Numbered from the stretch's first letter, positions 6,291-28,528 are shown. The stretch is DNA of 64,000 nt from Anaerolineales bacterium UBA2200 (GCA_002327925.1 DCVA01000043.1:5948-69947); one strand, 5' to 3'. Numbers and translations: made by a program. Notes: a model not told the origin generated them from the letters alone.

Positions 6291-7304
6291 ATGCATACGG
6301 GGAATCTAGAAGCAACAGAAGTTCAAACCAAACGCGACCGCCACGAGATGGTTATGTTTCCGTGGACGGTGTACCGTGGTGACAAGAACTGGGTGCCGCC
6401 GATCATCCAGGAGCGCGAGAGGCTCCTGGATCCAGACCAGAATCATTTTTTCCTGCAGGCGGATGTGGCGCTGTGGGCAGCGCGCCGCGACGGGCGTGTT
6501 GTGGGCACTATTGCTGCCTTCATCGACCACCGCTTCAATGACTATCTCAAGCAGCAGGTGGGCTTCTTCGGCTTCTTTGAGGTACTAGACGATCATGAAG
6601 CCGCTGAAGTGCTGCTGGGTACAGCCAGGGACTGGGTGCAACAACATGGCATGAGCGAGCTGCACGGTCCCATCAACTTCCACCGCGACCGGGAACGTGG
6701 AATACTGCTGGAAGGCACGGATTGCCCACCACCCATGCTCTGTGGCCATTCACCTCCCTATTAGAAAGAGTTCGTTGAGGCCTTTGGCATGGTCAAGCTT
6801 GCCGACGACTTCTGCCGACGGCTGTGGGTCAAAGACCTGGTAGGGCCAGATGGCAGCCTGCCGCCCCGCTTGGCCCGCTTGGAGAAGGTGGCTCAGCGCC
6901 GCACGCACTTCAAGATCCGCCATGTCAACCTCCATGACTGGGACAGCGAAGTTCAGCTTGTGCGCGAATTGTATGATGCGACCATTGGACAACTGCCCGA
7001 TCACATTCCATGGAACGAAGAGGAAATCGCCGCCTTTGCGAAGGAATTGCGGCCTATTGTCGATCCGGACTTCGCCCTGTTTTGGGAGGCAGATGGCAAG
7101 ATGGTGGGCTGCCTGCTGGCGTTCCCGGATCTTAACCAAGTCCTCATCCACCTGAACGGGCGTATCGATGGCCTCCACAAGCTGCTGGCCTGGTGGCACA
7201 TGAGGCACATTGACGTGCTTAGCATGAAGGTCGCGGGAGTCTTGGACGAGTACCAGGGATGCGGCATCGAGGCACTGTTCTTCGTGGAACTGGCCAAAGG
7301 GTGA
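6291..7304 (+). pseudogene. YghO/bacterial ceramide synthase-like tandem GNAT, interrupted by in-frame TAG (6762-6764) and C-terminally truncated
   Basis: FPWTVY..DKNWVPP, GFFGFFEVLDD and PPY*KEFVEAFG, where the family normally reads PPYY. The two ORF pieces are in the same frame, and the protein ends at LAKG* without the usual last GNAT strands. Confidence 0.8.
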
Positions 7305-7480
7305 GCCGCCGATCCGCCTGCTTCCACCAACTGATTACGGGCAAGGGGCAGGTTAGCTTCCGATGCGGTGTTCATTCCTGACCGGGTACCCGGCAGAGTT
7401 GCCGCTCATCCCGCGGCTCCTCACCACCCCGCTTCGGCCCACGGTCCTTATCGCCTCCCCTCGGCACGTGGCAAGGCTAC

Positions 7481-7508
7481 TTGACACATACGAAGCGGGG
7501 CATACAAT
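7481..7508 (+). promoter_or_regulatory. Sigma70-type promoter TTGACA-16-TACAAT
   Basis: Near-consensus -35 (7481-7486) and -10 (7503-7508) hexamers in an intergenic region. Confidence 0.7.
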
Positions 7509-7512
7509 GACA

Positions 7513-7720
7513 ACCGGAACCGTCCTCTGCAGTTGTGGTGGGAATCCGGGGCACGCCCGGGGATGCTTGTTCGGGCGCCTTATGCCGCCCGAACAAGGTG
7601 ACGTGACCCCACGGCATCGGCAGCGCGGCAATCCGCAGGTGGAGGGTGAGGCATGACTGCGCGACCGGCTACCCCTTTTCCCTTCAGAGACCTGTCCGAA
7701 GGCATAGTTACCTCCCTTTC
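7513..7720 (+). ncRNA. Candidate structured sRNA or 5' leader of unknown family
   Basis: Starts just after the promoter. Perfect 12-bp hairpin CTTGTTCGGGCG/CGCCCGAACAAG (7566-7597), a long-range 9-bp helix GCAGTTGTG/CATGACTGC, further short hairpins and C/U-rich tracts. Confidence 0.4.
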
Positions 7721-7851
7721 CTCTGCCACCGCGGGCTCACACGACCGCTGTGCCGCCCCGGGGGGTGGTCCAAAAGCCGGCCGCACTTGAATGGTGGCTG
7801 TGGGCAATGTGAGGAGTGCTCTCGAGTTCGCCAGAAGAAAGGAGTCACCAG

Positions 7852-8412
7852 GTGCCCCTGATAACCGAAAAACAGAAGATGCTGGCCGCAGAACCCTACA
7901 ACTGCCTTGATCCCGACCTGCAGGCGGAGCGCGAAAAGACCAAGGAATTGCTGCGGGTCTACAATCTGACCGAAACCGAGCCTGAACGACAAGCCCTCCT
8001 GCGGCAATTGTTGGGGCACATCGGTCAGAATCCGATCATCTGGCCGCCTTTCTACTGTGTCTACGGCTACAACATACACCTGGGCGATCATGTCTTCCTG
8101 AACGTCCTGTGTACCATTCTGGACTGCAATGAGGTGCGCATCGGGCACCATGTCATGATCGGTCCTCACGTCCAGATCTACACGGCCGCCCATGACATCC
8201 AGGCCGAACGCCGGATCCGGGGCTGGGAAGTGGCCAAACCGATACTGATCGAGGACAATGTGTGGTTAGGGGGCGGTGCCATCCTCCTGCCAGGGGTGAC
8301 AATCGGCCGGAATGCCGTGGTGGGCGCGGGGGCAGTCGTCACCCGGAGCGTTCCGGCGAATACGGTCGTGGCGGGGAATCCGGCCAGGGTGATCAGAGAG
8401 ATCGAACAGTGA
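7852..8412 (+). CDS. maa: Sugar O-acetyltransferase (maltose O-acetyltransferase family, hexapeptide repeat)
   Basis: EKQKMLA..PY, PPFYCVYGYNIHLG, IGPHVQIYTAAH, I.IEDNVWLGGGAILLPGVTIG and VVAGNPARVIR. SD AAAGGAG before GTG 7852. Confidence 0.88.
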   Translation: MPLITEKQKMLAAEPYNCLDPDLQAEREKTKELLRVYNLTETEPERQALLRQLLGHIGQNPIIWPPFYCVYGYNIHLGDHVFLNVLCTILDCNEVRIGHHVMIGPHVQIYTAAHDIQAERRIRGWEVAKPILIEDNVWLGGGAILLPGVTIGRNAVVGAGAVVTRSVPANTVVAGNPARVIREIEQ

Positions 8413-9296
8413 GAGCCGGGTCGCAGGATTGAGTCCACTGCGGCGCCAGATCCCAGACGAACTTGTACGTTGCACTCCCGCCGAGCGGCAGTTCGTCGCT
8501 GCCCTTCAGCGCGCCACCCACCTGGACAAGGCATGATTTGTCTCTGTACAGGGTGAGTTGATTCAGGCCTAGCCACGGTAGAGTTTGCCGTGGCGATGGA
8601 AAGCTGCCCTGAGGGCAGGCGATGTTAACGCTCAGCGTTCGACCGACGGTGTTTGTGTCCACATAGGCCCGCTTGGATGGGCCATCGGTCGCCCCGGTCA
8701 GGATCGCCAACCCGCCCGAAGTATTGCCGGAGCTCAGCGTGGCACTGTCCGTTGCGTGACCCACACAGCCAATGTTGGTATTAATCACGTCGTACACGCG
8801 CTGCCACAGACCGTCCACGACCTTGAATCCTATCGCCGGGTAGGGGATCTCCGGGTGCGCCTGCTGCCGTTCCAAAACTACATTGGACACCTGCTGCACA
8901 TCGGTGAATGCTCCGATACTCTGGCCTGTGAACTCGAAGGATGCGGAGCCAGCATAGCGCCAGCAGCCCAGGTCGGATGCCTCGAGGGCGGGAGTGGTCC
9001 CCGGCGCGTTCACAGAATCACTAATGAGGTATTTACTGTAGCTGTAGAGGATCACCAGCTCCTCGAGTCGCTCCGCTTTGGCGTCGCGGCGAAAAGACAC
9101 GTAGGGCTTGCTTGTCCAGTGCTCCAGGACCCAGTCGGTCTGCCCTTCGACCTTGTACATCCAGTGGAAGCCAGGGCTTCACTCGGCCAGAAACGGGCCC
9201 GTCACGACCAACGAGCGGTATTGAGTAAGACAGTGCTGCAAGGATCAGGGTCAGGACGAGTCGCGCGGTGAGGTGGCGTAAGTGCCAGGACATCAT
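8393..9296 (-). pseudogene. Exported hypothetical protein, apparently split by a 1-nt frameshift at the GGG run 9174-9176
   Basis: A signal-peptide ORF (MMSWHLRHLTARLVLTLILAALSYS) and the 255-aa body are in different frames. Removing one C of CCC gives a continuous VKPGFHWMYKVEG. Confidence 0.5.
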
Positions 9297-9395
9297 GCGC
9301 CCTTGTGTCGGACTGAAGGGCGGTTCCTCCCCGGCGGATTCGCTTGTGCGTATCGGGTCGGCCCGGATGGCGGCAGCGCCGTGCTCCGCGAGCGG

Positions 9396-9893
9396 TTAAC
9401 CGCAGGTACCCCGTGTTTCTCTGGCCCTGCGCCGGCGTACCCGCTCTTCCTGCCGCTGCTTGCCTTCCACCATCCTTCGCTGCTCATCGGCCGTTTCGGC
9501 CAGCAGGGGCGGCACCTCCGCCGCTTCGCCGTTTTCGTCCTTGGCAACGTACACCAGATAGGCGGAGTTGGTGTGCGTGATCTCCCCTGTCAGCACGTCC
9601 TCGGCCTCCACCCGGACTCCGACCTCCATAGAGGTGCGCCCGACGTAGTTGAGCGAGGCCTTGACAGTGAGCAGGTTGCCGACAAAGATAGGGGAGTGGA
9701 AGGACATGGAGTCGATGGCCACGGTCACGACCGGCCGCCCGGCGTGACGGGAGGCGCAGATGCCACCCACCTCGTCCACGAGCCGCATGACCATTCCACC
9801 GTGGATGTTGCCGACCGGGTTCGCGTCGGCAAGGTGCATAAGCTGGCTGATCGTGGTCTGAGAATCGCGAATGTGTCTGGGCGCCAGGGTCAC
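9396..9893 (-). CDS. Acyl-CoA thioesterase (hotdog fold, YciA family)
   Basis: DANPVGNIHGG, VVTVAIDSMSF..PI.VG, GRTSMEVGVRVEAE and SAYLVYVA. GGAGG precedes GTG 9893. Confidence 0.92.
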   Translation of the reverse strand: MTLAPRHIRDSQTTISQLMHLADANPVGNIHGGMVMRLVDEVGGICASRHAGRPVVTVAIDSMSFHSPIFVGNLLTVKASLNYVGRTSMEVGVRVEAEDVLTGEITHTNSAYLVYVAKDENGEAAEVPPLLAETADEQRRMVEGKQRQEERVRRRRARETRGTCG

Positions 9894-18213: not shown

Positions 18214-19737
18214 CTATTCCTCGAGGATCCATTGGGTGTACAGCTCATCCAGTTCCTGGCCCGACACCTGCTCAAAGACACGCAGCCAATCTTCCGGCGT
18301 AGATAGCTGGTACTTGCGGTCGACCAGATACGCGCGCATGGCGTCGAGGAACACCGTGTCTCCAAGTTCTGCCCGCACGTCCTGGAAGAACAGCGCCGCC
18401 TTGCCGTAGACGATGGCGCTGTACATTTCCGGACTGAAAGCCTCCACCGGCTGGTTGACGACCGCGTCCTGTCCGCTCTCGCGCAGCCGAACGTAGCGGC
18501 TGGCCACATAGTTGTCGAAGGCCAGCCTGGCCCGGTCTGAGCCGTACACGTACTCGTAATAGTACAGAGTGCTAAAGTTGGTCAGCCCTTCATCGAGCCA
18601 TGGCACAGTCACCTGGTCGTTGCCTACCAGGCTGTACCACCACTGGTGCGCTACCTCGTGCGCCGTGATGAATTCCAGATACTCACCTGCTGCCTCATAC
18701 TGCCGCGTGTCAATGAGTATCAGACCCGGGTACTCCATTCCTCCAGACACGGGTGCCTCGACCACGTCGAATTCCGCGAACGGGTAGGGGCCGAAGCTTT
18801 CCTGGTATGCCCGTAGACTATCGCGGGCGAAAGCGAGCATGGCGACGCCCGCGTCGCGATGCTGGGGCAGGAAGTAGGAGTTGACCCGGACATGACCCAG
18901 AGCGAGGGAAACAGATTCGAATCTCTCGCTGGCCACAAGCATCCAATCGCGCATCGGGCCGCTGACGAATTTCCAGGTGACCGTTCCGTCGCTGTTCTCT
19001 ACTCTGGAGATGCCAGAGCCGGAAGCCACGAGTTTGAGGTCTGTCGGCGCAGTGAACTCAACGCTGTAGAAGCTGGTTTCGGCGTAGACAGGGTCGCCGT
19101 AATCGGGCGCCAGGGCGAGATTCCATCCATCTGCCTCGTGGACCGCTACCATAGCGTAAAAGTTGGAGAGGAGCAGGATTCCATCCTGGTAGTTGTAGGT
19201 GCCATAGCCGCGTGCGTTTTCCACCGGCACAGTCACGTTGTACAGCATTTCGACGTCCACAGCTTCCCCCGCGCGCAGCGCCGTGGGCAGAATGATGCCG
19301 ACTGCCGTGCGCTCGGACTGGTAGTCCAGAGCTGCCTCCTGGCCGGCCACGGTCACACTGCCGAAGGCGAGCTCCGAGCCAAAACTAGGCTTGTTGGCAA
19401 AGAGTCGAAAGTAGACGCGATCCAGCGTCTGGGTGCTGCGGTTTGTGTAGCGCGTGGTCTGTTGCACCTGCAGGCGTGGCTGTGAAGCCCCCAGAAACAG
19501 GCGGGCGCGGATGTAATAGAAGGGAGGATCCGAGACGGCTATGACATCATCCGCCCATGCCGGCAGCATGGCCAGCCGGTAGGTGTCCGGTTGCTGCCAG
19601 GCCGGGGTGGGCGCTGGCATCTCTGTAGCGGTTGGGGTGGGAGTTGTTCTGGAGAGCACGGGGAGCCGGTCGCACGCTGGCGCGGCAAGACTCACCACGA
19701 GACAAAGTGCGAGCAATCGTTTCCTAGAGATCAGCAT
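18214..19737 (-). CDS. M1-family zinc aminopeptidase lipoprotein
   Basis: GGMEYPG, HEVAH-x18-E (WLDEG) and YGKAALFF. Lipobox LAAPAC followed by a PT-rich linker. Confidence 0.92.
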   Translation of the reverse strand: MLISRKRLLALCLVVSLAAPACDRLPVLSRTTPTPTATEMPAPTPAWQQPDTYRLAMLPAWADDVIAVSDPPFYYIRARLFLGASQPRLQVQQTTRYTNRSTQTLDRVYFRLFANKPSFGSELAFGSVTVAGQEAALDYQSERTAVGIILPTALRAGEAVDVEMLYNVTVPVENARGYGTYNYQDGILLLSNFYAMVAVHEADGWNLALAPDYGDPVYAETSFYSVEFTAPTDLKLVASGSGISRVENSDGTVTWKFVSGPMRDWMLVASERFESVSLALGHVRVNSYFLPQHRDAGVAMLAFARDSLRAYQESFGPYPFAEFDVVEAPVSGGMEYPGLILIDTRQYEAAGEYLEFITAHEVAHQWWYSLVGNDQVTVPWLDEGLTNFSTLYYYEYVYGSDRARLAFDNYVASRYVRLRESGQDAVVNQPVEAFSPEMYSAIVYGKAALFFQDVRAELGDTVFLDAMRAYLVDRKYQLSTPEDWLRVFEQVSGQELDELYTQWILEE

Positions 19738-19744
19738 GGGCGGC

Positions 19745-19773
19745 ATTATACGGATCGCCGGGGGGTGACGCAA
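19745..19773 (-). promoter_or_regulatory. Promoter TTGCGT-17-TATAAT; the predicted start coincides with ATG 19737 (leaderless)
   Basis: TATAAT lies 7 nt before the ATG and there is no SD. Confidence 0.6.
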
Positions 19774-19856
19774 GGGCAGTGAGCAGCGAAGGACTCCGGA
19801 CGGCGGTCCGGAGTCCTCGTCTGAGCTGGGCTGATTGGAGAGGCCTTGCAGATGAC

Positions 19857-21674
19857 CTATTGCACCGTGTGTTGCAGGCTGGCGACCACATCAGGCGTCT
19901 GGTCTGTGGCGTCGTGCTGGGCCATATAGCTCTTGACCAGCTCCGTATCGTCCCTGGCCAGGTCCATCGTCGAGCGGTAGGAGAGACTCTGGAAGAGCAC
20001 CTCGGCAGCCACCAGGAAGGGACCGCTGTGGCCCGTGACATTCACCCTGTAGGTCACCTGGTCAGACCCGCTATCGAAATTGGCGTCCGTGAACGCGCTG
20101 CCCATAACGGCAAAGTCCTTGCCGGCGGTGGCCTTGTCAAAGCCGGCGGGTAGTAGCCGGTTGTCCTTGACGTAGGACTGGCCGCGAAGCAGGGTGTAGG
20201 TCACCTGCTTCTCGCTATCGATCATCACCGACTCGTAGACCTGCACCTGGTCCTGGCCGGTGATCATGTCATAGTGTGCCTCGTAGGCGGAGGCGTCCTG
20301 GTCCGCGTCACAACCAGCGATACTGCCATCAGGCTGAGGCTTGCCCGATTCGAAGACAATGTTGCCTTTGCCGTCGGCCACGGTCAGATGGATCCAGGCT
20401 CTCCGGAGAGGGATTCCAGTGGGGAACTTGTGCCCAACCATCGAGTCGAGCTGCAGGCGGACGGAGAGCGCATCTCCTGCCAGGGCGGACTCTGCCACGG
20501 AGAGACTCAGTGTCCTATTGCCCAGCTGGTTCACTACTCTCTGCAGGGTTCCTTCCAGTTGCGCCTCAGAGCAGGTCAGCGAGAGTTGGTCGACATTATC
20601 CTGCAGCAACCGGATCATGAACGCATTGCCGCCGACAAAATGGTGCTCGGCAAAGGGCTGACGAGCGCTGATTCTGGGGGGCTTGGGCGAATTTGCGATC
20701 AGCACCTCGCCAAGTGCGTCAGGCATGTGGCACTTCTGGCAGACCATCCCCATGTCGCCATAGGCGCTGTGTTGCCATTCCAGGTAGGCTGTCTGCTCCG
20801 GGAACTCACCAGCCACGTTTCCTGCTGCGTCGAGGTAAGGGGTGTAGAGGGTGTGGCAGCTGGCGCACAGGCCGGCATCCAGCGTCTGCAGGCCAGGCGC
20901 TGGAGTGAAGCCGACGGAGCGGCGCATGGTGTCCTGGAACATATCCGGGAAGGGTCCGTAGGACATTCGGTCCGGCGGCTCGCTGGAGGTGTTGATCACA
21001 AAGTTGCCGCTGAATGACTCGGTTGTGCCCAGCCTGTCCTTCTCAATCTGATGGCATACGTTGCACGAGACGCCATCCATGGCCGCCTGGTGCAACTCAT
21101 TGTCCGCGCTCAAAAAGCCCGCATCAAGAATCGCTGTCGACGAGCCGCTCAAAGCAGCTTCCGTGAAGGCCATTGGCATGTGACACACGCTGCACTTGTC
21201 CTCGATCACCTGTTTGAGTGCAGGCGCGCGCTCCACTTCGGAGCTCACCTTGGCCAGATACACAGGGTCATGAGCCGCGTTGGCCATCATCACGGAGCGC
21301 CAGTGAACGTCGATGGAGACGTCGTTTCCTGCTGCGTCGGTCAGACGCGTATGGCAGATGCCGCAGGTGCCCGAACCGGTGAAATCAGCTCTCGTGAACA
21401 TGGTCAGCGGCTTGCCCTTGCTGCCCGCCTGAGTGGGGACGGCGGTGGGTGGCACGGCAGTGGGTGGCACCTGCGTGGGCGGGACGGCGGTGGCTGGCAC
21501 CTCAGTGGGAGGCGCCTCGGTAAGCGTGGGAGGCACCGCAGTTGGCCTCGGGGGCACAGCGGTCGCTGTGGGGGTGGGGCCCGAGCAGGACGCAATGAGA
21601 GCGGCGCCTGGCAGCACGACGAGGATCAACAGGCCTATCAGAAGGTAGGTCCGACTGAGCGATTGGGTCTTCAT
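19857..21674 (-). CDS. Pentaheme c-type cytochrome lipoprotein (cytochrome c554/c552-like multiheme domain plus a beta-rich C-terminus)
   Basis: Five CxxCH motifs: CGICH, CSVCH, CNVCH, CASCH and CQKCH. Lipobox LIASC. SD AGGAG before ATG 21674. Confidence 0.9.
   Translation of the reverse strand: MKTQSLSRTYLLIGLLILVVLPGAALIASCSGPTPTATAVPPRPTAVPPTLTEAPPTEVPATAVPPTQVPPTAVPPTAVPTQAGSKGKPLTMFTRADFTGSGTCGICHTRLTDAAGNDVSIDVHWRSVMMANAAHDPVYLAKVSSEVERAPALKQVIEDKCSVCHMPMAFTEAALSGSSTAILDAGFLSADNELHQAAMDGVSCNVCHQIEKDRLGTTESFSGNFVINTSSEPPDRMSYGPFPDMFQDTMRRSVGFTPAPGLQTLDAGLCASCHTLYTPYLDAAGNVAGEFPEQTAYLEWQHSAYGDMGMVCQKCHMPDALGEVLIANSPKPPRISARQPFAEHHFVGGNAFMIRLLQDNVDQLSLTCSEAQLEGTLQRVVNQLGNRTLSLSVAESALAGDALSVRLQLDSMVGHKFPTGIPLRRAWIHLTVADGKGNIVFESGKPQPDGSIAGCDADQDASAYEAHYDMITGQDQVQVYESVMIDSEKQVTYTLLRGQSYVKDNRLLPAGFDKATAGKDFAVMGSAFTDANFDSGSDQVTYRVNVTGHSGPFLVAAEVLFQSLSYRSTMDLARDDTELVKSYMAQHDATDQTPDVVASLQHTVQ
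21430..21580 (-). repeat. Degenerate 15-nt tandem repeat encoding a PTAVP-type Pro/Thr linker
   Basis: The translation PTAVPPTLTEAPPTEVPATAVPPTQVPPTAVPPTAVPT sits between the lipobox and the heme domain. Confidence 0.8.
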
Positions 21675-21762
21675 TGGCTCTCCTTCACCTCGGATGTGAG
21701 ATGACCACTCACGGCAATTATAGGACAGGTGGGCGGCGTTGGCAAGAGCCTGGTGCCATTCC

Positions 21763-22182
21763 TCAGCGGGCGCTGGATACCGCCTGCGCCACGGCCGCCG
21801 CATTGGGAACGCCCGTTTGTGCATAGACTTCGTGACCCTGGACGTTCAGTACCAGCGTGGTGGGTGTTGCGCGGATGCCGTATCGGCGCACGACGTCAAG
21901 GCCCGTTGCCGTTGCCGCGTTGATGCGAATGACGGCGGCCTGACCTTGCAGCTGACTTTCGATCCTGTCCACGACAGGCTTGGCGATGAGGCAGGACGGT
22001 CAGCCGTTGGAGAAGAAATAGACCACCGTCGGCTGTCCCGTGGCGATCAGTCGGTCAAAGTCCTCGGCTGATGCGAGTGGGGTGCCTTCGCTTCGAAGCA
22101 TCAGCCAGGCCAGCGGCAGCCCGATCACGATCAAAAGGGAGATCCAGTTCTCTCTGGCAAAGCGCAGCAATCTGTCAGCCAT
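21763..22182 (-). CDS. Membrane-anchored thioredoxin-like protein with in-frame TGA: putative selenoprotein (U-P-S-C)
   Basis: Track ORFs 22000-22206 and 21763-21972 are in one frame. Read through, it gives TVVYFFSNG-U-PSCLIAKPVVDRI...YGIRATPT, a UxxC plus cis-Pro motif. A CCTGTC-GTG-GACAGG hairpin lies 21 nt after the TGA. Confidence 0.85.
21964..21978 (-). promoter_or_regulatory. Putative bacterial SECIS hairpin of the Trx-like selenoprotein
   Basis: Perfect 6-bp stem with a GUG loop downstream of the in-frame UGA (22000-22002). Confidence 0.55.
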
Positions 22183-22253
22183 GAGTTCCAAGCATTCTCC
22201 TTTCACAGAAAACTACGTGATGACAAACACGAGCGAGTCGCCACGGCAACGGT

Positions 22254-23399
22254 CTACTCGCCGCCCAGCTGCTCGTCAATCTTGACCATCCAGTCGGCAA
22301 TGGGGATCTTCTGCGGGCAGAGCTCCTCGCACTTGTGGCACTGGATGCAGGCAGCTGCGCGCGTGTCCTCGCCGGGTCGACGCGGCTCATTGTAGCTCTT
22401 GCGTGCCTTCTCCATCTGGTTGTCCACGATGGCCCGGTTGTACAGGTCCAAATTGAAGGGGATCCACACCCCATTGGGGCAGGGCATGCAGTAGCGGCAG
22501 TCGGTACAGGGAATGGGGAAGAGACTGCGATACCTGGTCCGTGCCTCCTCGATCAACGCCAGGTCCTGTTTCGGCAGAGTACCTGGCCCCGAGTTGTCCG
22601 CACTGGCCAGGTTTTCTACTACCTGGGCCATGGTCGTCATTCCACTCAGGGCCAGGGACACTTCCGGCTGGTTCCAGACCCACTGCAGCGCCCAGTCAGC
22701 CTGTGAGCGTGACGTAGTTGCGCGTTCGAAGGCCTCCGCAATCTTGGCCGGAAGGTTAGCCAGTCTGCCTCCGCGTATAGGCTCCATCACGACCACGGGA
22801 ATGCCCCGCGACGAGGCGTACAACAAACCCTGGCGGCCAGCCTGGATGTCCTGATCGACATAGTTGTACTGAATCTGGCAGGGGCACCAGCCGGCATAGG
22901 CGTCGATGATCTCCTTGAAGACGTCGAATTTGTCGTGGAACGAGAATCCGAAATGACGGATCTTGCCCCGCGCCATGGCGCCCTCAGCCCAGCGCAATAT
23001 CCCCAGGTCCCGCATTTTGGGCCACTCGCGAGCGCTCAGGGCGTGAAGCAGGTAGAAGTCGACATGGTCCGTTTGCAGTCTCTGCAATTGTTCGTCCAGC
23101 AGGCGTTCCGGGTCCTCGGCCTTGTCGACCAGCCAGCACGGCAGCTTGGTCGTCAAGTGCACCCGGTCACGGTACCCGCCCTGCAGGGCACTGCCCAGCC
23201 ACTTCTCGCTGTTCCCGCCGTGGTATCCATAGGCCGTGTCAACATAGTTCACACCCTGATCGATGGCAAAGCGCAGGATGCGTGTGGCCTCCGGCTCATC
23301 GATGGCCGTCGAGTCGCTGCCGATGGTAGGAAGCCGCATGCAGCCAAATCCGAGCGCGGAAACCTGAATGTCGTATCTGCCGAATGGACGGTACTTCAT
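22254..23399 (-). CDS. Aldo/keto reductase with a C-terminal 4Fe-4S dicluster domain (COG1453-like)
   Basis: LGFGCMRLP, YVDTAYGYHGG.SE, QIQYNY and VMEPIRGGRL, plus CTDCRYCMPCP and CIQCHKCEELCP. Confidence 0.93.
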   Translation of the reverse strand: MKYRPFGRYDIQVSALGFGCMRLPTIGSDSTAIDEPEATRILRFAIDQGVNYVDTAYGYHGGNSEKWLGSALQGGYRDRVHLTTKLPCWLVDKAEDPERLLDEQLQRLQTDHVDFYLLHALSAREWPKMRDLGILRWAEGAMARGKIRHFGFSFHDKFDVFKEIIDAYAGWCPCQIQYNYVDQDIQAGRQGLLYASSRGIPVVVMEPIRGGRLANLPAKIAEAFERATTSRSQADWALQWVWNQPEVSLALSGMTTMAQVVENLASADNSGPGTLPKQDLALIEEARTRYRSLFPIPCTDCRYCMPCPNGVWIPFNLDLYNRAIVDNQMEKARKSYNEPRRPGEDTRAAACIQCHKCEELCPQKIPIADWMVKIDEQLGGE

Positions 23400-23499
23400 C
23401 GATATCCCCCCAGTCGTTTGCCCTGTTCCACGGCGAGGTATGCCTTCCCCTCAGACGGGCCCCGCCGACATAACGAAGAACTAAACACAGTAGAGATTG

Positions 23500-24561
23500 C
23501 TAAGGTCCTCCGAGAAAAGAGCGGCCGGTCGGAACCTGCAAGCGCATCGCCACTCGGAGCACGGCGCTCCCAAGGTCCGGGTAGCGGTAACGGTTCGCCT
23601 CCACAAGCGCGGCAACCGTGATGCCATGGGCCGCAGCGATTCGGCCCAGACTGTCGCCCGGCTGGACGACATAAAGCACCGAACCCCGCCTTGTCCGCGG
23701 ATGGAGGTGGCTCGTTGCGGGAACGGTCGAGTAACGCTCCATCATGGACCGAAAATCGGCTCCCTGGTGAAGCTCTGCGTGATATCGCGGAACAGCGGCC
23801 AACTGCTCCAGCCTCTGCACGGCACCGCCCTCGCCGTAGGTAATCAGTGCAGGATACAGAGCCGCGGCATCTTCTTTGTAGTTCACCGCGTTGAACGGCC
23901 AAACGTAGCCGACGGGATCGATCCCGCAGTGCTGGCGGATCGCCTCTTTGGAGTCGGCGAACTCGTGCAAGGCCTGCTCCCTGGTCAGACCGCCGTCTCG
24001 CCCGACCATCTGGTAGTTGTGCGAGACAGAGTGGGAGGCGAGCTCGTAGCCCAGGCTCTGCAGAAAGCGGATCTTGCGCCAATCCCACCCGCTCGCTTCC
24101 TCAGGGATGTCCCCAGTCACTACACCCAGGACCGCCTGGAAACCGTAGCGGCGAAACTCAGGGTACATCTGGAGCCAGAAAGTGGCGTAGGGACCGGCGA
24201 GGTTGCCTTCCCGGTCGCAGCACGCCTTGGCAGCGCCTATGTCGTCTACCGACAGAATCACTCGTCCCTGCGGCGTGGTCCCGTTCTCCAGGTGCCAGAT
24301 AAGCGCTCGGAAGGAAATGGTCCGCATCTTGAGCTGGTGAAGAATGTGCATCTGCTGGCGAAAGGCCTCGACCGTCCAGTCGTCGGTGAAGACAGGGTGA
24401 TAGGCCAGCACGGGAACGCCGCTCCAGACGGCAGCGTTGGCTCCGACCGGGCATATGGCCTGGATGGCGAGGCTCGCACCGAGGGTGGCCGTCCAGCGCA
24501 GGAACGAACGCCTCGAGAGCAGCCTGAGTTTGCCTGCCGCGGGATGGTCAGGCACCGTCAC
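23500..24561 (-). CDS. Tat-exported polysaccharide deacetylase (CE4/NodB-like) with a C-terminal LysM domain
   Basis: Twin-arginine SRRSFL, LSVDD, ELASHSVSH and YVWPF. LysM YVVQPGDSLGRIAAAHGITVAALVEAN. Confidence 0.85.
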   Translation of the reverse strand: MTVPDHPAAGKLRLLSRRSFLRWTATLGASLAIQAICPVGANAAVWSGVPVLAYHPVFTDDWTVEAFRQQMHILHQLKMRTISFRALIWHLENGTTPQGRVILSVDDIGAAKACCDREGNLAGPYATFWLQMYPEFRRYGFQAVLGVVTGDIPEEASGWDWRKIRFLQSLGYELASHSVSHNYQMVGRDGGLTREQALHEFADSKEAIRQHCGIDPVGYVWPFNAVNYKEDAAALYPALITYGEGGAVQRLEQLAAVPRYHAELHQGADFRSMMERYSTVPATSHLHPRTRRGSVLYVVQPGDSLGRIAAAHGITVAALVEANRYRYPDLGSAVLRVAMRLQVPTGRSFLGGP

Positions 24562-24567
24562 GTCACA

Positions 24568-25986
24568 TCACGCGTCAAAGTAGAGTTCCATCTCGTAGGG
24601 GTGAGGTCGATTGCGTACTGCGTAATGCTCCTCGAACTTGACCTTGCTCCATTCGGCAATCTGCCCCTCATCAAAGACCGACCCTGCCAGTAGGAACTCG
24701 TGGTCACGTTCGAGCGCTTCCAAAGCCTCTTGAAGGGAGCGTGGCAGCGGCTTGATCGCTTTGCGCTGTTCCTCGCTCCAGGCAAAGATGTTCTGGTCGA
24801 TGGGCCCGTAGCCGAGGTCCCGGGGGTCCATCTGCTGGCGAATGCCGTCCAAACCTGCCATGAGCTGTGCGGCCAGAGTGAGGTAGATGTTGCCTGTGGC
24901 GTCTGGCGGACGGAATTCGATGCGGGCCGTGTCCGGTTGGTCTGCGTACTTGGGCACGCGCACAGCGGCGCTGCGGTTGCCCAGACTGAAGAAGGCATTG
25001 ACCGGCGCCTCATAACCCGGAACCAGGCGACGGTACGAGTTGGTGGACGGATTGGTCAGGGCCAGCACTGAGGCGCCGTGGTGCAATAGTCCTCCAATGT
25101 ACCAGAGGGCCGCCTGGCTCAACTTGCCGTAGCCATCAGCGGCGTAGAAGACGTTGCGGCCTTGTTTGAACAGATGCTGGTGGAAATGCATGCCGCTTCC
25201 GGCCTCCCCGAAGAGTGGCTTGGGCATGAAGGTCGCCGTCTGGCCGCGTCGATGAGCCGCCATTTTGGCGACGTACTTGACCATCTGTGTGACATCCCCG
25301 GATCGCAAGAGGCCCATCATGGGAGTCTCTATCTCGCACTGGCCCGGTCCGCCGACTTCGTGATGGTGGTATTTGACCTCCACTCCGAGGTCACTCAGCA
25401 GGATCGAAATCTCGCTGCGGAGGTTATACAGTTGATCCTTTGGGGGAATCACATGATATCCGCCGTGACGTGGGATCAGGTGTCCGTGCCCACCTCGACT
25501 GCTTTGCCAGTCGGCCTCGCAGCTCTCCACTCGGTAGGAAGATGTATTGATCTCATTCTCAAAAGCGACTTGGTCAAAGACGTAGAACTCGAATTCCGGG
25601 CCCCAGCGACTCTCATCGGCGACACCCATCTCTCGCATATACTCCTCCGCGCGGAGGGCGATGTTGCGCGGATCACGGGCAAATGGCCGCTTGGTGTCGG
25701 CTTCGTAGGCTGAGGCGATGAAGCTCAGGGTCGTTCGCTCCCAAAAGGGATCGACAAACGCGGTTACCAGGTCAGGCAGAAGGATCATATCCCCCGCCTT
25801 CAGCGGCTTGAGCCCGAGAGCCGACGCGTCAAACCCGACCCCGTCACGCATCAGCGAATCATTGAACTGGCTGGCAGGCAGGGTGACGTGGTGCCAGCGC
25901 CCGGCAAGGTCGCTGAATTTGAGGTCGATCATGACGACCCGGGTTTCTTGAATATAGGATTGGGCTTCTTGCCAGTCCTTGAACAT
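24568..25986 (-). CDS. glnA: Glutamine synthetase type I
   Basis: FDASALG, GPEFEFYVFD, HHHEVGGPGQCEI, FMPKPLFGEAGSGMHFHQ, YRRLVPGYEAP, NRSAAVRVP, RIEFRPPD and PHPYEMELYF. SD GGGGAGGAG before ATG 25986. Confidence 0.97.
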   Translation of the reverse strand: MFKDWQEAQSYIQETRVVMIDLKFSDLAGRWHHVTLPASQFNDSLMRDGVGFDASALGLKPLKAGDMILLPDLVTAFVDPFWERTTLSFIASAYEADTKRPFARDPRNIALRAEEYMREMGVADESRWGPEFEFYVFDQVAFENEINTSSYRVESCEADWQSSRGGHGHLIPRHGGYHVIPPKDQLYNLRSEISILLSDLGVEVKYHHHEVGGPGQCEIETPMMGLLRSGDVTQMVKYVAKMAAHRRGQTATFMPKPLFGEAGSGMHFHQHLFKQGRNVFYAADGYGKLSQAALWYIGGLLHHGASVLALTNPSTNSYRRLVPGYEAPVNAFFSLGNRSAAVRVPKYADQPDTARIEFRPPDATGNIYLTLAAQLMAGLDGIRQQMDPRDLGYGPIDQNIFAWSEEQRKAIKPLPRSLQEALEALERDHEFLLAGSVFDEGQIAEWSKVKFEEHYAVRNRPHPYEMELYFDA

Positions 25987-26150
25987 CTCTCCTCCCCAAC
26001 TTCGTCGTTGAGCCGCACAACATCCCGGCGGAACTTGCGGTATTCTACCCGAGCTGGCTGACCCCTGCAAACAAGAGTCTCGAGTGCCCATTTCGCCAGT
26101 GATGGGAACGGAGTATAATAGCGACCATCTGTGCTCGGATTGGAGGACAA

Positions 26151-27458
26151 GTGCCAAGACGCCTGCTATGTGTTACGATCCTGCTGATTGTGCTTTCCCT
26201 GGCCGCCTGTTCGCAGAACACGGCGGCGCCCCCCACCGCAACGCGAGTCGGTCAGCCGACCGACACGCCCGTGCCGCCAACCGGCACACCCGGCGATGGT
26301 GAGGTGGAGATGGGATTCACCTCGGAGGGCTTTCCGTACAAAGGCAATGCGAATTCCCCGGTGACGCTCTGGGAGTTCTCAGAATTCCAGTGACCGTTTT
26401 GCGCCCGTCACGCCAACGAGACGGGCCCGCTTCTGTATGAAGCGTATGTCAAGACCGGCAAGGTAAAGATCGTCTTTGTGCAGTCGCCGCTGGAGTCGAT
26501 TCACCCGCAGGCACGTAAAGCGGGAGAAGCATCGCTCTGTGCTGCCCGGCAGGGCATCGAGTTCTTCTGGAGCATCCACGACCGGCTGTTTGCCGGCACG
26601 GGTGACTGGAGCGGCCTGGGAACCGCGACCGATGTCTTCAAGGGCTATGCATCAGAGCTGGGGCTGGATCTCGCCCGGTTCAGCGCTTGCCTGGATGCGG
26701 GCGAGACGACGGCTGAGCTGAACACCCAGATACAGTATGCCTACACCAACGGGGTGAGCGGAGTCCCCTACTTCCTGGTGAACGACTGGCCTGTCTCCGG
26801 GGCGCAGGCCTATAGCGTGTTCCAGAGCGCCATCGAGAAGGCACTGGCCGGCGAGCATCCACCGCCAACGCCCACACCCCTGCCCGAAGGCAAGAGCTGG
26901 CTCGACGTCAATCCGGACAAGCCCGGCTACACCTATGGCGGGGATGCGTACCGAGGTGAGGAAACGGCGCAAGTTGTGGTCTTCCAGTTCATCGACTTTG
27001 CCTCGGCCGACAACCGCACGGTTGTCGTGGAGACATGGCCAGAGCTGGAGAAGCAGTACCTGGAAAGCGGAAAGGTGCGCCTGGTAATCAAGCACCTGCC
27101 CCTTGCCAGTCAGCCCACGGCCGTGCTGGCCTCGGAGGTTGCTGAGTGCGCTGGCCAGCAGAATGCCTTCTGGCCGATGTATGGTCTGCTGTTCCAGAGT
27201 CAGAGCGAATGGAGTAGTCTGGAGGACGCGACGGCTGTCTTCAAGCGCTTTGCCTCAGAGCTCAAGCTGAACGACGCGGCCTTTGCCGCCTGTCTGCAGG
27301 ATGACGAAGCCAGAGCAAAGGTAGAGTCCGATATGGACATTGGCGTACAAAACGGCTTCCCTGCCGCACCCGTGTTCTTCATCTTCAAAGGCGACGAGGG
27401 TGGGTATGTGCAGACAGATCAACTGCGGACGGCAATCGACGAGTTCCTGACCGAGTAG
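26151..27458 (+). CDS. Two-domain DsbA/thioredoxin-fold lipoprotein with in-frame TGA: putative selenoprotein (U-P-F-C)
   Basis: Track ORFs 26151-26393 and 26478-27458 are in one frame. Read through, it gives WEFSEFQ-U-PFCARHANET...GKVKIVF. Lipobox LAAC, cis-Pro loop GVSGVP and SD GGAGG. Confidence 0.88.
26403..26426 (+). promoter_or_regulatory. Putative SECIS hairpin of the DsbA-like selenoprotein
   Basis: 7-bp stem GCCCGTC/GACGGGC beginning 9 nt after the UGA, with a small CG-CCAA-CG apical hairpin. Confidence 0.55.
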
Positions 27459-27480
27459 ACACTCGTCTAGCAGGACAATG

Positions 27481-27520
27481 AAACAGCCTCCCGCCGGCTC
27501 TGCCGGCGGGAGGCTGTTTT
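27481..27520. terminator. Bidirectional intrinsic terminator
   Basis: Perfect 18-bp inverted repeat AAACAGCCTCCCGCCGGC-TCT-GCCGGCGGGAGGCTGTTT between convergent genes. Confidence 0.9.
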
Positions 27521-27526
27521 CGTGGA

Positions 27527-28528
27527 CTACTCGGTGATGCTGAACGTGGCCAGGAGCAGATTGAACAACGGATCGTACTCGTGGCCCGAGGAGCTGAGCT
27601 GAATGCGGTACTCGCGCCTTCCGCTGATTGTGTAGATTACATCGTACGCACCATAGAATGGCTGGCCGGCGGTGTAGCGTATGCCAGGCCGGCCTCCAAC
27701 GACCACCGTGGCCTGTCTGTAGCCCATCTTGGCCAGGCTCTCCATTTCCGCAACGCTGGGCTGATCGGACACAGTGATCCACACCTCCGCATCCTTCTCC
27801 CCGGGCAACTGACCTGGAGTCTGCACCTGGTACGTGCTCAGCTTGGTTGCAGCGGGTGGCGCAGGCATGACTGAGCCCTGGTTGAGGTGCCAACTCGGGG
27901 GGTACCTCAGGGCAAAGCCATGTGTTGCATTGGTGAACGTCTGCCAGCCGTCCAGCTCGGGCGCGGCAACCAGCACCACAGGCGCGGTCACCAGACTGTT
28001 GGGCGATCCATCTTTGGGGCTGGGCTCATAGGCCTGCAGAGTGGCCTGAATCGGCACTGCCGGTGGGGGATAGAAGAGGTCGACCGCGAACTCGCCCCAC
28101 TCGGGAGCACCGGCGGAGGTGCGAACGTAACCAGTGGCCAGAATATCGCCTGCTGGTCCCACCAGCTCAACCACGAGCATTGCCTCGAATACCTGCGCCT
28201 TGCCCGCAACGCGCACGACACCAGGTGACAGTTCAGAGGGGCTGACCTGGCTTAGAATGATGCGTGCCTCTGGCGTCGGTTTGGCAGCCGGTGTCAAGGG
28301 CGGGGTGATCGTAACATCTGGTGAAGGAGTCGAGGTGGGCAGGGCCGTAGTGGGGATCGTGGTGACGGTCGCAGCCAGGGTGGCACTGGGAGGCGGTGTG
28401 GTCGGTGCGGGCAAGGTCAGAGTCGGTGAGACGGGCGTGGATACCGGCACGGTTGGCCGGGACCCACAGGCCGCTGCCAGCAGCAAAACAGAGACAGCCA
28501 GAGCGAGCAGTCGCAGGCGTTTTCTCAT
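27527..28528 (-). CDS. Lipoprotein with a Gmad2 immunoglobulin-like domain and a PsbP-like C-terminal domain
   Basis: Lipobox LAAAC and a PT-rich linker. V.GKAQVFEA...GAPEWGEF and SPKDGS, then WQTFTN..HGFALRYPPSW. SD AAGGAG before ATG 28528. Confidence 0.8.
   Translation of the reverse strand: MRKRLRLLALAVSVLLLAAACGSRPTVPVSTPVSPTLTLPAPTTPPPSATLAATVTTIPTTALPTSTPSPDVTITPPLTPAAKPTPEARIILSQVSPSELSPGVVRVAGKAQVFEAMLVVELVGPAGDILATGYVRTSAGAPEWGEFAVDLFYPPPAVPIQATLQAYEPSPKDGSPNSLVTAPVVLVAAPELDGWQTFTNATHGFALRYPPSWHLNQGSVMPAPPAATKLSTYQVQTPGQLPGEKDAEVWITVSDQPSVAEMESLAKMGYRQATVVVGGRPGIRYTAGQPFYGAYDVIYTISGRREYRIQLSSSGHEYDPLFNLLLATFSITE

Follow-up and report, generated by a model that had tools for sequence, protein, structure and literature searches.

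Two genes for selenocysteine (Sec)-containing thioredoxin-fold proteins, a membrane-anchored thioredoxin and a DsbA-like lipoprotein, lie within 4.4 kb of each other in a 64,000-nucleotide stretch of DNA, hereafter the window, from Anaerolineales bacterium UBA2200. The window is C25:5948-69947 of the source metagenome-assembled genome (MAG; G000), a 2.8-Mb assembly with 88% completeness and a G+C content of 62%, whose nearest named relatives are Chloroflexota/Anaerolineae MAGs. At a probability of about 0.8, we favor the explanation that these are two independent selenoproteins of known kinds with no dedicated module, and that the closeness of both genes to a five-heme c-type cytochrome gene and an aldo/keto reductase gene reflects family-level gene order in a cell-envelope neighborhood. 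The original prediction, made from the DNA alone, had joined all four genes in a Sec-based Dsb/cytochrome-maturation relay. Its inventory was borne out: two UxxC proteins, one with an export signal and one with a membrane anchor, are encoded within 7.6 kb; the pentaheme lipoprotein and the Fe-S aldo/keto reductase have the expected domains and share the minus strand with the thioredoxin; and glnA and a deacetylase gene separate the two Sec genes. The relay itself fared less well, as set out below. All class-level counts refer to a sample of 301 genomes, comprising the window's own and 300 others, in which the window's taxonomic family is designated f1.

The case for Sec in the thioredoxin is comparative. 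Its active site reads FFSNG-U-PSC around the TGA, and full-length homologs read FYSN(T/R)-C-x-x-C at the same position. Orthologs (E≤1e-19) were found in 61 of the 301 genomes, and 57 of these 61 carried exactly one TGA, down to ~32% identity. A hairpin resembling a selenocysteine insertion sequence (SECIS), with a stem of 6 bp and a G-U-N loop (CCUGUC-GUG-GACAGG), begins 24 nt after the U of the UGA (+25 to +39). Five orthologs have CCCAUC-GUC-GAUGGG instead; two base pairs have changed in a compensatory way (UA to CG and GC to AU), and these changes coincide with Val-to-Ile and Arg-to-Gly codon changes in the protein. Across 15 orthologs the hairpin was 96.7% paired, compared with at most 49% when the 3′ partner was slid by one to three columns; 10 cells were doubly changed, and the observed covariation score was reached by 0 of 500 shuffles. 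Single-sequence folding of the region was unremarkable (z-score −0.96), leaving the comparative test as the only informative one.

By family, the thioredoxin is of the classical type: Pfam Thioredoxin (PF00085) scored 37.1 bits (gathering cut-off 23.5), and the sequence carries the U-P-S-C motif and an A-T-P-T cis-Pro loop. The equivalog-level thioredoxin model TIGR01068 gave 46.2 bits, below its cut-off of 96.8, with the canonical W-C-G-P-C replaced by NG-U-PSC, and neither PF08534/PF00578 nor the ResA models matched. Among curated selenoprotein models none matched the window thioredoxin; there, generic thioredoxin models did so below threshold only. A word-indexed protein search likewise returned no match, the homologs having come from an exhaustive HMMER search, and public protein collections hold proteins of this type only as N- and C-terminal fragments. 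The longest open reading frame (ORF) begins at GTG 22206, and ATG 22182, which matches the N-termini of orthologs, is the likely start codon. A single N-terminal hydrophobic helix (WISLLIVIGLPLAWLML) was kept in 15 of 15 orthologs examined; in most of them it is preceded by two to three Lys/Arg residues and followed by a net negative stretch. These flanks favor an N-in, C-out arrangement, and the thioredoxin domain probably lies outside the membrane. We conclude that this membrane-anchored, almost always Sec-containing subfamily is an unannotated branch of the already known thioredoxin selenoproteins.

The DsbA-like protein presents a parallel picture. Around its TGA the active site reads EFQ-U-PFC, where full-length homologs have FQ-C-P(Y/F)-C. 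Following a lipobox (LSLAAC), two DsbA/Thioredoxin_4 domains are recognizable, the second having lost its CxxC (FASADN). The protein matches PF13462 (E 3.4e-42) and PF01323 (E 3.2e-15), and the NCBIfam model NF041057 ('Rcas_1661 family thioredoxin-like (seleno)lipoprotein') scored 255.5 bits against a cut-off of 190. Close two-domain orthologs (E<1e-100) occurred in 33 genomes of the class, ~27 with TGA, 5 in Cys form and 1 truncated before the site. Among orthologs the TGA persists down to ~45% identity. Two hairpins occupy +13 to +54: a 7-bp stem (GCCCGUC-10 nt-GACGGGC) that begins 12 nt after the U of the UGA, followed by CGCUUC-UGUAU-GAAGCG. Both are maintained in close Sec-form orthologs (~17 loci) and disrupted in the Cys forms at loci L024 and L063, and a distant Sec clade (L058-L060) has another hairpin instead, with the loop CGUGU. 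At one further locus (L061; G126:C78, ~5225), a UGU (Cys) form of the gene retains both SECIS-type hairpins, unlike L024 and L063, which would be older Cys forms; the switch from Sec to Cys at L061 was probably recent. The window genome also encodes a Cys-type paralog of this lipoprotein (C24:22519-23964, plus strand; 37% identity), both domains of which keep a CxxC (CPYC and CPPC).

Three f1 loci (L019, L020 and L023) hold both TGAs in the same columns with intact downstream frames, and their DsbA-like proteins are 61-70% identical to that of the window. The window genome itself contains selA and selD, the latter with its own in-frame TGA. One could still read one or both TGAs as true stops, produced by split or decaying genes or by assembly errors, and two observations count for that view: public gene calls split the thioredoxin gene and the DsbA-like gene into two fragments each, and neither selB nor tRNA-Sec was found in the 88%-complete window assembly. 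The second also counts against our reading, since Sec decoding in this organism rests on its relatives. ARAGORN and the Rfam tRNA-Sec model detected no tRNA-Sec in the window genome, the best Rfam match being a tRNA-Leu(CAA). A selB candidate at C42:598-1047 was read as EF-Tu, as it directly adjoins tRNA-Thr and is ~385 aa long. However, all five relatives tested, including G069 of the same genus, possess both selB (above cut-off) and tRNA-Sec (68-72 bits, cut-off 47), and the regions of G069 that bear them are without a counterpart in G000, in keeping with the 12% that the assembly lacks. With the same TGA in the same active-site column across dozens of genera, intact frames downstream, conserved hairpins and a selD in this genome that contains a TGA itself, the true-stop reading is barely credible and is effectively refuted by the comparative data. 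The alignment with Cys homologs, the conservation of the TGAs, the RNA hairpins and the Sec machinery together indicate that the TGAs of both genes encode Sec, and the possibility raised by the original prediction as its own undoing, that either TGA is a stop, did not materialize.

A scan of the whole 2.8-Mb genome placed the pair in a wider selenoproteome, with candidate Sec genes numbering at least seven. The other candidates are an HdrA2-like gene (C13:118423-120894, minus strand; TMDCSI-U), a glutaredoxin-PDZ gene (C12:97803-98306, plus; U-PYC, with the Uxx-star model above cut-off), a Prx/SelL-related gene (C20:1104-1760, minus; FA-U-PFC) and a 105-aa ORF without a family match (C14:35254-35574, plus; Q-U-PFC), in addition to SelD (C13:130726-131778, minus; AAG-U-AAK). 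Matches on C15 and C16 proved to be false positives, namely a helicase-like ORF and a trmD/fumarase read-through. By our own arithmetic, the chance that two of at least seven Sec genes fall within 4.4 kb is roughly 0.07, and the closeness of the two is therefore not compelling by itself.

We then considered gene order. In f1 the sequence of genes is peptidase, cytochrome, thioredoxin, (reductase), deacetylase, (glnA) and DsbA-like (G069/L020, L019, L023 and L024). It is not rigid: glnA is missing from the locus in L020 and L023, two additional genes part the thioredoxin from the reductase in L023, the DsbA-like protein of L024 is a Cys form alongside a Sec thioredoxin, and the thioredoxin of G227 is preceded by a trxB-like gene, with the cytochrome 1.3 kb further on. 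The aldo/keto reductase is syntenic in the close clade only and carries no signal peptide, and the deacetylase-LysM gene and glnA between it and the DsbA-like gene are unrelated intervening genes. A promoter-like site separates the thioredoxin stop from the cytochrome start, and comparable −10 boxes occupy the same place in L019 and L020; all of these sites are consensus matches only. The features of the locus are collected in Table 1. Two side observations concern its surroundings: the region from 18214 to 28525 encodes a concentration of envelope proteins in which signals of the lipoprotein type and linkers rich in Pro/Thr are common (the Gmad2 protein, the cytochrome, the DsbA-like protein and the deacetylase-LysM protein with its twin-arginine translocation (TAT) signal), and in the close relatives L019 and L020 the Gmad2 gene is followed by the mraZ/dcw cell-division cluster.

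Table 1. Features of the window between the peptidase and Gmad2 genes, in window coordinates.
Feature	Position	Strand	Remarks
M1 peptidase	18214-19773	minus	
Five-heme c-type cytochrome lipoprotein	19857-21674	minus	Pro/Thr-rich linker, C-terminal beta-sandwich region
Promoter-like site TTGCCA-17-TATAAT	21717-21745	minus	11/12 consensus match
Membrane-anchored thioredoxin with UPSC	21763-22182 (longest ORF to 22206)	minus	
SECIS-like hairpin of thioredoxin	21964-21978	minus	CCUGUC-GUG-GACAGG
In-frame UGA of thioredoxin, Sec codon	22000-22002	minus	Aligns with first Cys of CxxC in Cys homologs
Aldo/keto reductase with C-terminal 4Fe-4S dicluster domain	22254-23399	minus	Cytoplasmic
TAT-signal polysaccharide deacetylase with LysM domain	23500-24561	minus	
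glnA	24568-25989	minus	
DsbA-like selenolipoprotein, Rcas_1661 family	26151-27458	plus	
In-frame UGA of DsbA-like gene, Sec codon	26391-26393	plus	Aligns with Cys of FQCPYC in full-length homologs
Two hairpins 3′ of DsbA-like UGA	26403-26426 and 26428-26444	plus	
Gmad2-domain protein	27527-28525	minus	

Such an arrangement invites the idea of a dedicated extracytoplasmic Sec relay, in which the thioredoxin and the DsbA-like protein would mature or service the cytochrome, perhaps by holding the thiols of its CxxCH motifs in the reduced state, with the reductase as part of the unit. In favor of this idea, ResA and CcmG set the established pattern of a thioredoxin-fold reductase anchored in the membrane and encoded next to cytochrome genes, and the thioredoxin gene immediately precedes the cytochrome gene on the same strand in G000, G069, L019, L020, L023 and L024 and lies within 1.3 kb of it in G227. 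Yet beyond f1 the synteny and co-occurrence checks that the original prediction had proposed turned out against it. Among the 301 genomes the two genes adjoin only in G000, G069 and G227, all members of f1; G252 and eight genomes from other families carry them on separate contigs, so that those eight show no adjacency. The cytochrome was present in 27 genomes, of which 12 also have a thioredoxin orthologue and 15 do not. Together with a close DsbA-like ortholog it was found in 3 genomes (3.0 expected), all in f1, and never outside f1 (0 versus 2.1 expected). The cytochrome had no conserved neighbors in 23 loci from ~17 families, including 18 loci outside f1, and on contigs from Acidobacteriota, Nitrospirota and Phycisphaerae it is a lone gene among unrelated neighbors. 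The surroundings of 22 further DsbA-like loci and of 9 further thioredoxin loci contained no multiheme ORF.

The two Sec genes keep different company elsewhere. In other families the thioredoxin is found, at most loci, next to canonical trxA (WCGPC; 6 loci), thioredoxin reductase (trxB; 3) or a CsoR-like repressor (4). At loci L027-L034 (G071, G129, G240, G051, G239 and G262), the Sec thioredoxin adjoins trxA (WCGPC), often with thioredoxin reductase or a CsoR/RcnR-like metal-sensor repressor nearby as well. The DsbA-like gene had no conserved neighbors across 27 loci, and two Cys-form homologs (56% and 44% identity) lie among central-metabolism genes. Further points tell against the relay: the thioredoxin is of the PF00085 type and not of the Redoxin/ResA type, the promoter-like site intervenes between it and the cytochrome, the reductase lacks a signal peptide and is parted from the thioredoxin by two inserted genes in L023, and the CcdA gene of the genome lies on another contig with two Cys-type thioredoxin-like genes. 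We regard the relay as unlikely, and the system proposed by the original prediction is only weakly supported, and as a conserved system it is unsupported.

The cytochrome itself belongs to a large family. Its five CxxCH motifs are invariant in 21 homologs (48-74% identity) from Chloroflexota, Acidobacteriota, Nitrospirota, Deltaproteobacteria-labeled MAGs and Phycisphaerales, and it bears the lipobox LIASC. More than 2,700 database proteins from at least five phyla match it at about 50% identity, none of them named and usually encoded by a lone gene. In an AlphaFold model (mean predicted local distance difference test (pLDDT) 69, predicted template modeling score (pTM) 0.71), the confident part is the beta-rich C-terminal half. 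The sole significant match of this model in the PDB was 5ZE8, the penta-heme c552 of Thermochromatium tepidum (Foldseek E 3.1e-11, TM-score 0.59 on the target, 15% identity). The family profile also matches 5ZE8 (E 7e-4) and, weakly, MccSep (9WT8; E 0.086), with the latter match spanning the loop N-x-AGH-x-x-P-x-G-x-P. MccSep is a Geobacter multiheme selenoprotein that reduces polysulfide (PMC13510729). At the column of its catalytic U325, the cytochrome family has a consensus Phe and the window protein an Ile (GHKFPTG-I-PLRRAW); the only invariant Cys residues of the family are the ten of the CxxCH motifs, and no conserved Cys beyond these could stand in for the heme-ligating C239 of MccSep. 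Judged by profile and predicted fold, the cytochrome is a distant, Sec-less and Cys-less relative of the c552/MccSep architecture, and it is uncharacterized.

This resemblance raises a further alternative, in which the cytochrome would be a Sec-less relative of MccSep and the adjacent Sec thioredoxin would supply the selenol in trans for the reduction of extracellular sulfur or selenium compounds. The five-heme cap, the immunoglobulin-like stem and the N-x-GH-x-x-P-x-G loop are indeed shared with T. tepidum c552 and MccSep, and in f1 a Sec protein is encoded immediately upstream of the cytochrome. However, the match to MccSep is weak, Ile or Phe stands at the U325 position without an extra conserved Cys for C239, and most cytochrome genomes lack the thioredoxin, which is adjacent in one family only. 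We consider this division of labor highly improbable.

Several findings nevertheless weigh against the reading of two independent selenoproteins. Co-occurrence of cytochrome and thioredoxin is mildly enriched: 12 genomes have both where 5.5 would be expected (p=0.0025 in a naive Fisher test without phylogenetic correction) and, leaving out f1, 8 have both where the expectation is 4.5 (p=0.057). In genus g114 of family f23 (G174 and G200), the cytochrome gene is followed on one strand by a gene for a TlpA-like reductase (WCGPC) and then by one for a fusion of DnaJ, a transmembrane segment (TM) and two DsbA domains, DnaJ-TM-DsbA(U-PYC)-DsbA(CPFC). This second cluster of the cytochrome with surface thiol-redox proteins, built differently from that of f1, also speaks for a relay and makes an occasional functional tie conceivable. 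A two-domain DsbA-like gene thus lies within 6 kb of the cytochrome in 2 of ~17 families, which by our rough estimate would occur by chance in ~1% of cases. As to topology, charge bias is a weak predictor and four thioredoxin orthologs are ambiguous, and the cytoplasmic trxA/trxB neighbors are equally compatible with a thioredoxin domain facing the cytoplasm. The first half of the ccdA gene on C35 looks interrupted by a TAA, and of the possible membrane re-oxidants, VKOR (PF07884) had no match in the 88%-complete window genome; DsbB was not searched for.

The g114 cluster (L076, 8190-10415 of G200:C116, and L074 on G174:C199) can be set beside its congeners. G273, which belongs to the genus of G200, retains the TlpA-like gene and the Sec-containing DsbA gene with no cytochrome nearby, and the Cys DsbA-like gene of G250 has no TlpA-like gene or cytochrome at its side. 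Partnership with the cytochrome is therefore not obligatory, and the G273 arrangement in particular counts against the relay. Conceivably, though with low probability, f1 and g114 independently placed the cytochrome beside extracytoplasmic thioredoxin-fold proteins, one with Sec in each case, for a facultative Se-dependent service that could be heme-Cys maturation or provision of a selenol in trans.

Elsewhere in the genome, C35:4461-9865 (plus strand) encodes an ArsP-type permease, a DsbD_TM/CcdA protein and a membrane protein of 532 aa without a Pfam match, whose N-terminal part contains two thioredoxin-like modules with CxxC; the part from 6400 to 9865 comprises CcdA and two Cys-type thioredoxin-like proteins, one of them membrane-anchored. 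HdrA-type anaerobic redox genes are present, and the organism looks anaerobic. At least three ORFs of the genome contain no fewer than five CxxCH motifs each: the window cytochrome (C25:27792) and those at C13:32914 and C21:73269. A regular-expression search of the window assembly for the WWD motif of CcsA/CcmF produced nothing convincing, and the single match (C24:19646) looks like a glycosyltransferase-type membrane protein. Cytochrome-maturation genes are either in the missing 12% of the genome or divergent.

From these data we infer a topology, a direction of electron flow and possible substrates for the two selenoproteins. The UGA of each gene would be recoded by the hairpin just downstream, by way of SelA, SelB, SelD and tRNA-Sec, and both proteins would most likely act as thiol-disulfide exchange catalysts on the membrane's outer face, where the lipobox of the DsbA-like protein would tether it outside the membrane. 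The N-terminal position of a UxxC is that of the exposed nucleophile, and a selenolate there is fully ionized and faster than a thiolate, as established for thioredoxin-fold chemistry. It would attack a substrate disulfide, or a sulfenic or persulfide sulfur, to form a selenenylsulfide with the substrate that the C-terminal Cys of the motif would resolve. For recycling in the reducing direction, electrons may leave the thioredoxin and thioredoxin reductase of the cytoplasm and cross the membrane on a CcdA-type carrier to reach the surface proteins. The CcdA cluster, the lack of a VKOR match, the HdrA-type genes and the trxA/trxB neighbors in other families favor a reducing or isomerizing role over that of a DsbA-type oxidase, and the gene content as a whole points to such a role, fed from the cytoplasmic thioredoxin system.

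Compared with known systems, both selenoproteins are new as members and not as kinds, and both are probably extracytoplasmic. The window DsbA-like protein shares with the Rcas_1661 family (NF041057) and with the 'DsbA-like protein form 1' selenoproteins the DsbA/Thioredoxin_4 fold, the lipoprotein signal, a UxxC with Sec in first position and a mixed Sec/Cys membership; selenoproteins of this form reportedly go back to Zhang et al. 2005/2006. In contrast to the NF041057 model, which has 247 positions and covers the first domain only, the window protein and its close orthologs carry an extra C-terminal DsbA domain without CxxC. With the DsbA-DsbB/VKOR pathway the protein shares the DsbA fold and an active CxxC-type site. 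The thioredoxin resembles known thioredoxin selenoproteins (PF00085, UxxC) in its classical fold, in the attacking position of its Sec and in having Cys-form homologs, but differs in its N-terminal membrane anchor and in reading SN(G/T)-U-x-x-C instead of W-C/U-G-P-C. The resemblance to ResA/CcmG/TlpA with CcdA extends to a membrane-anchored thioredoxin fold encoded beside a c-type cytochrome and to a CcdA-type carrier in the genome; the window protein is, however, of the thioredoxin subtype rather than Redoxin/AhpC-TSA and has no linkage to ccdA or resBC. Selenoproteins of both kinds, DsbA-like and thioredoxin, were already included in the surveys of 2005-2006 and appear in a 2026 review (PMC1088965, PMC1794560, PMC13188914); for experiments on a thioredoxin that contains selenocysteine, the review refers to Kim et al. 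2015 (PMC13188914).

For the cytochrome, the closest structures are T. tepidum c552 (5ZE8) and MccSep/GSU2936 (9WT8; PMC13510729), with which it shares an alpha-helical N-terminal part that holds the five CxxCH motifs, a beta-sandwich at the C-terminal end and an N-x-x-x-H-x-x-P-x-G loop. Relative to 5ZE8 it is ~15% identical and ~150 residues longer, and is a lipoprotein with a Pro/Thr linker; relative to MccSep it has neither Sec nor Cys at the U325 position and lacks the conserved heme-ligating Cys.

These comparisons bear on how such loci are read. What looks like a tidy redox cluster does not hold together when gene order is compared outside the family, which marks a limit on inference from gene order. 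At the same time, public gene calls systematically break two widespread Anaerolineae selenoproteins into fragments, and the claim that the system would escape standard annotation is correct for one of them: the thioredoxin is split in gene calls and has no curated selenoprotein model, whereas the DsbA-like protein is already curated as NF041057. With orthologs in about one-fifth of the sampled class genomes, the Sec thioredoxin is a family from whose curation annotation pipelines and selenoproteome surveys would gain. The large, conserved and unnamed cytochrome family may in turn be a more useful lead than the Sec pair beside which it was found.

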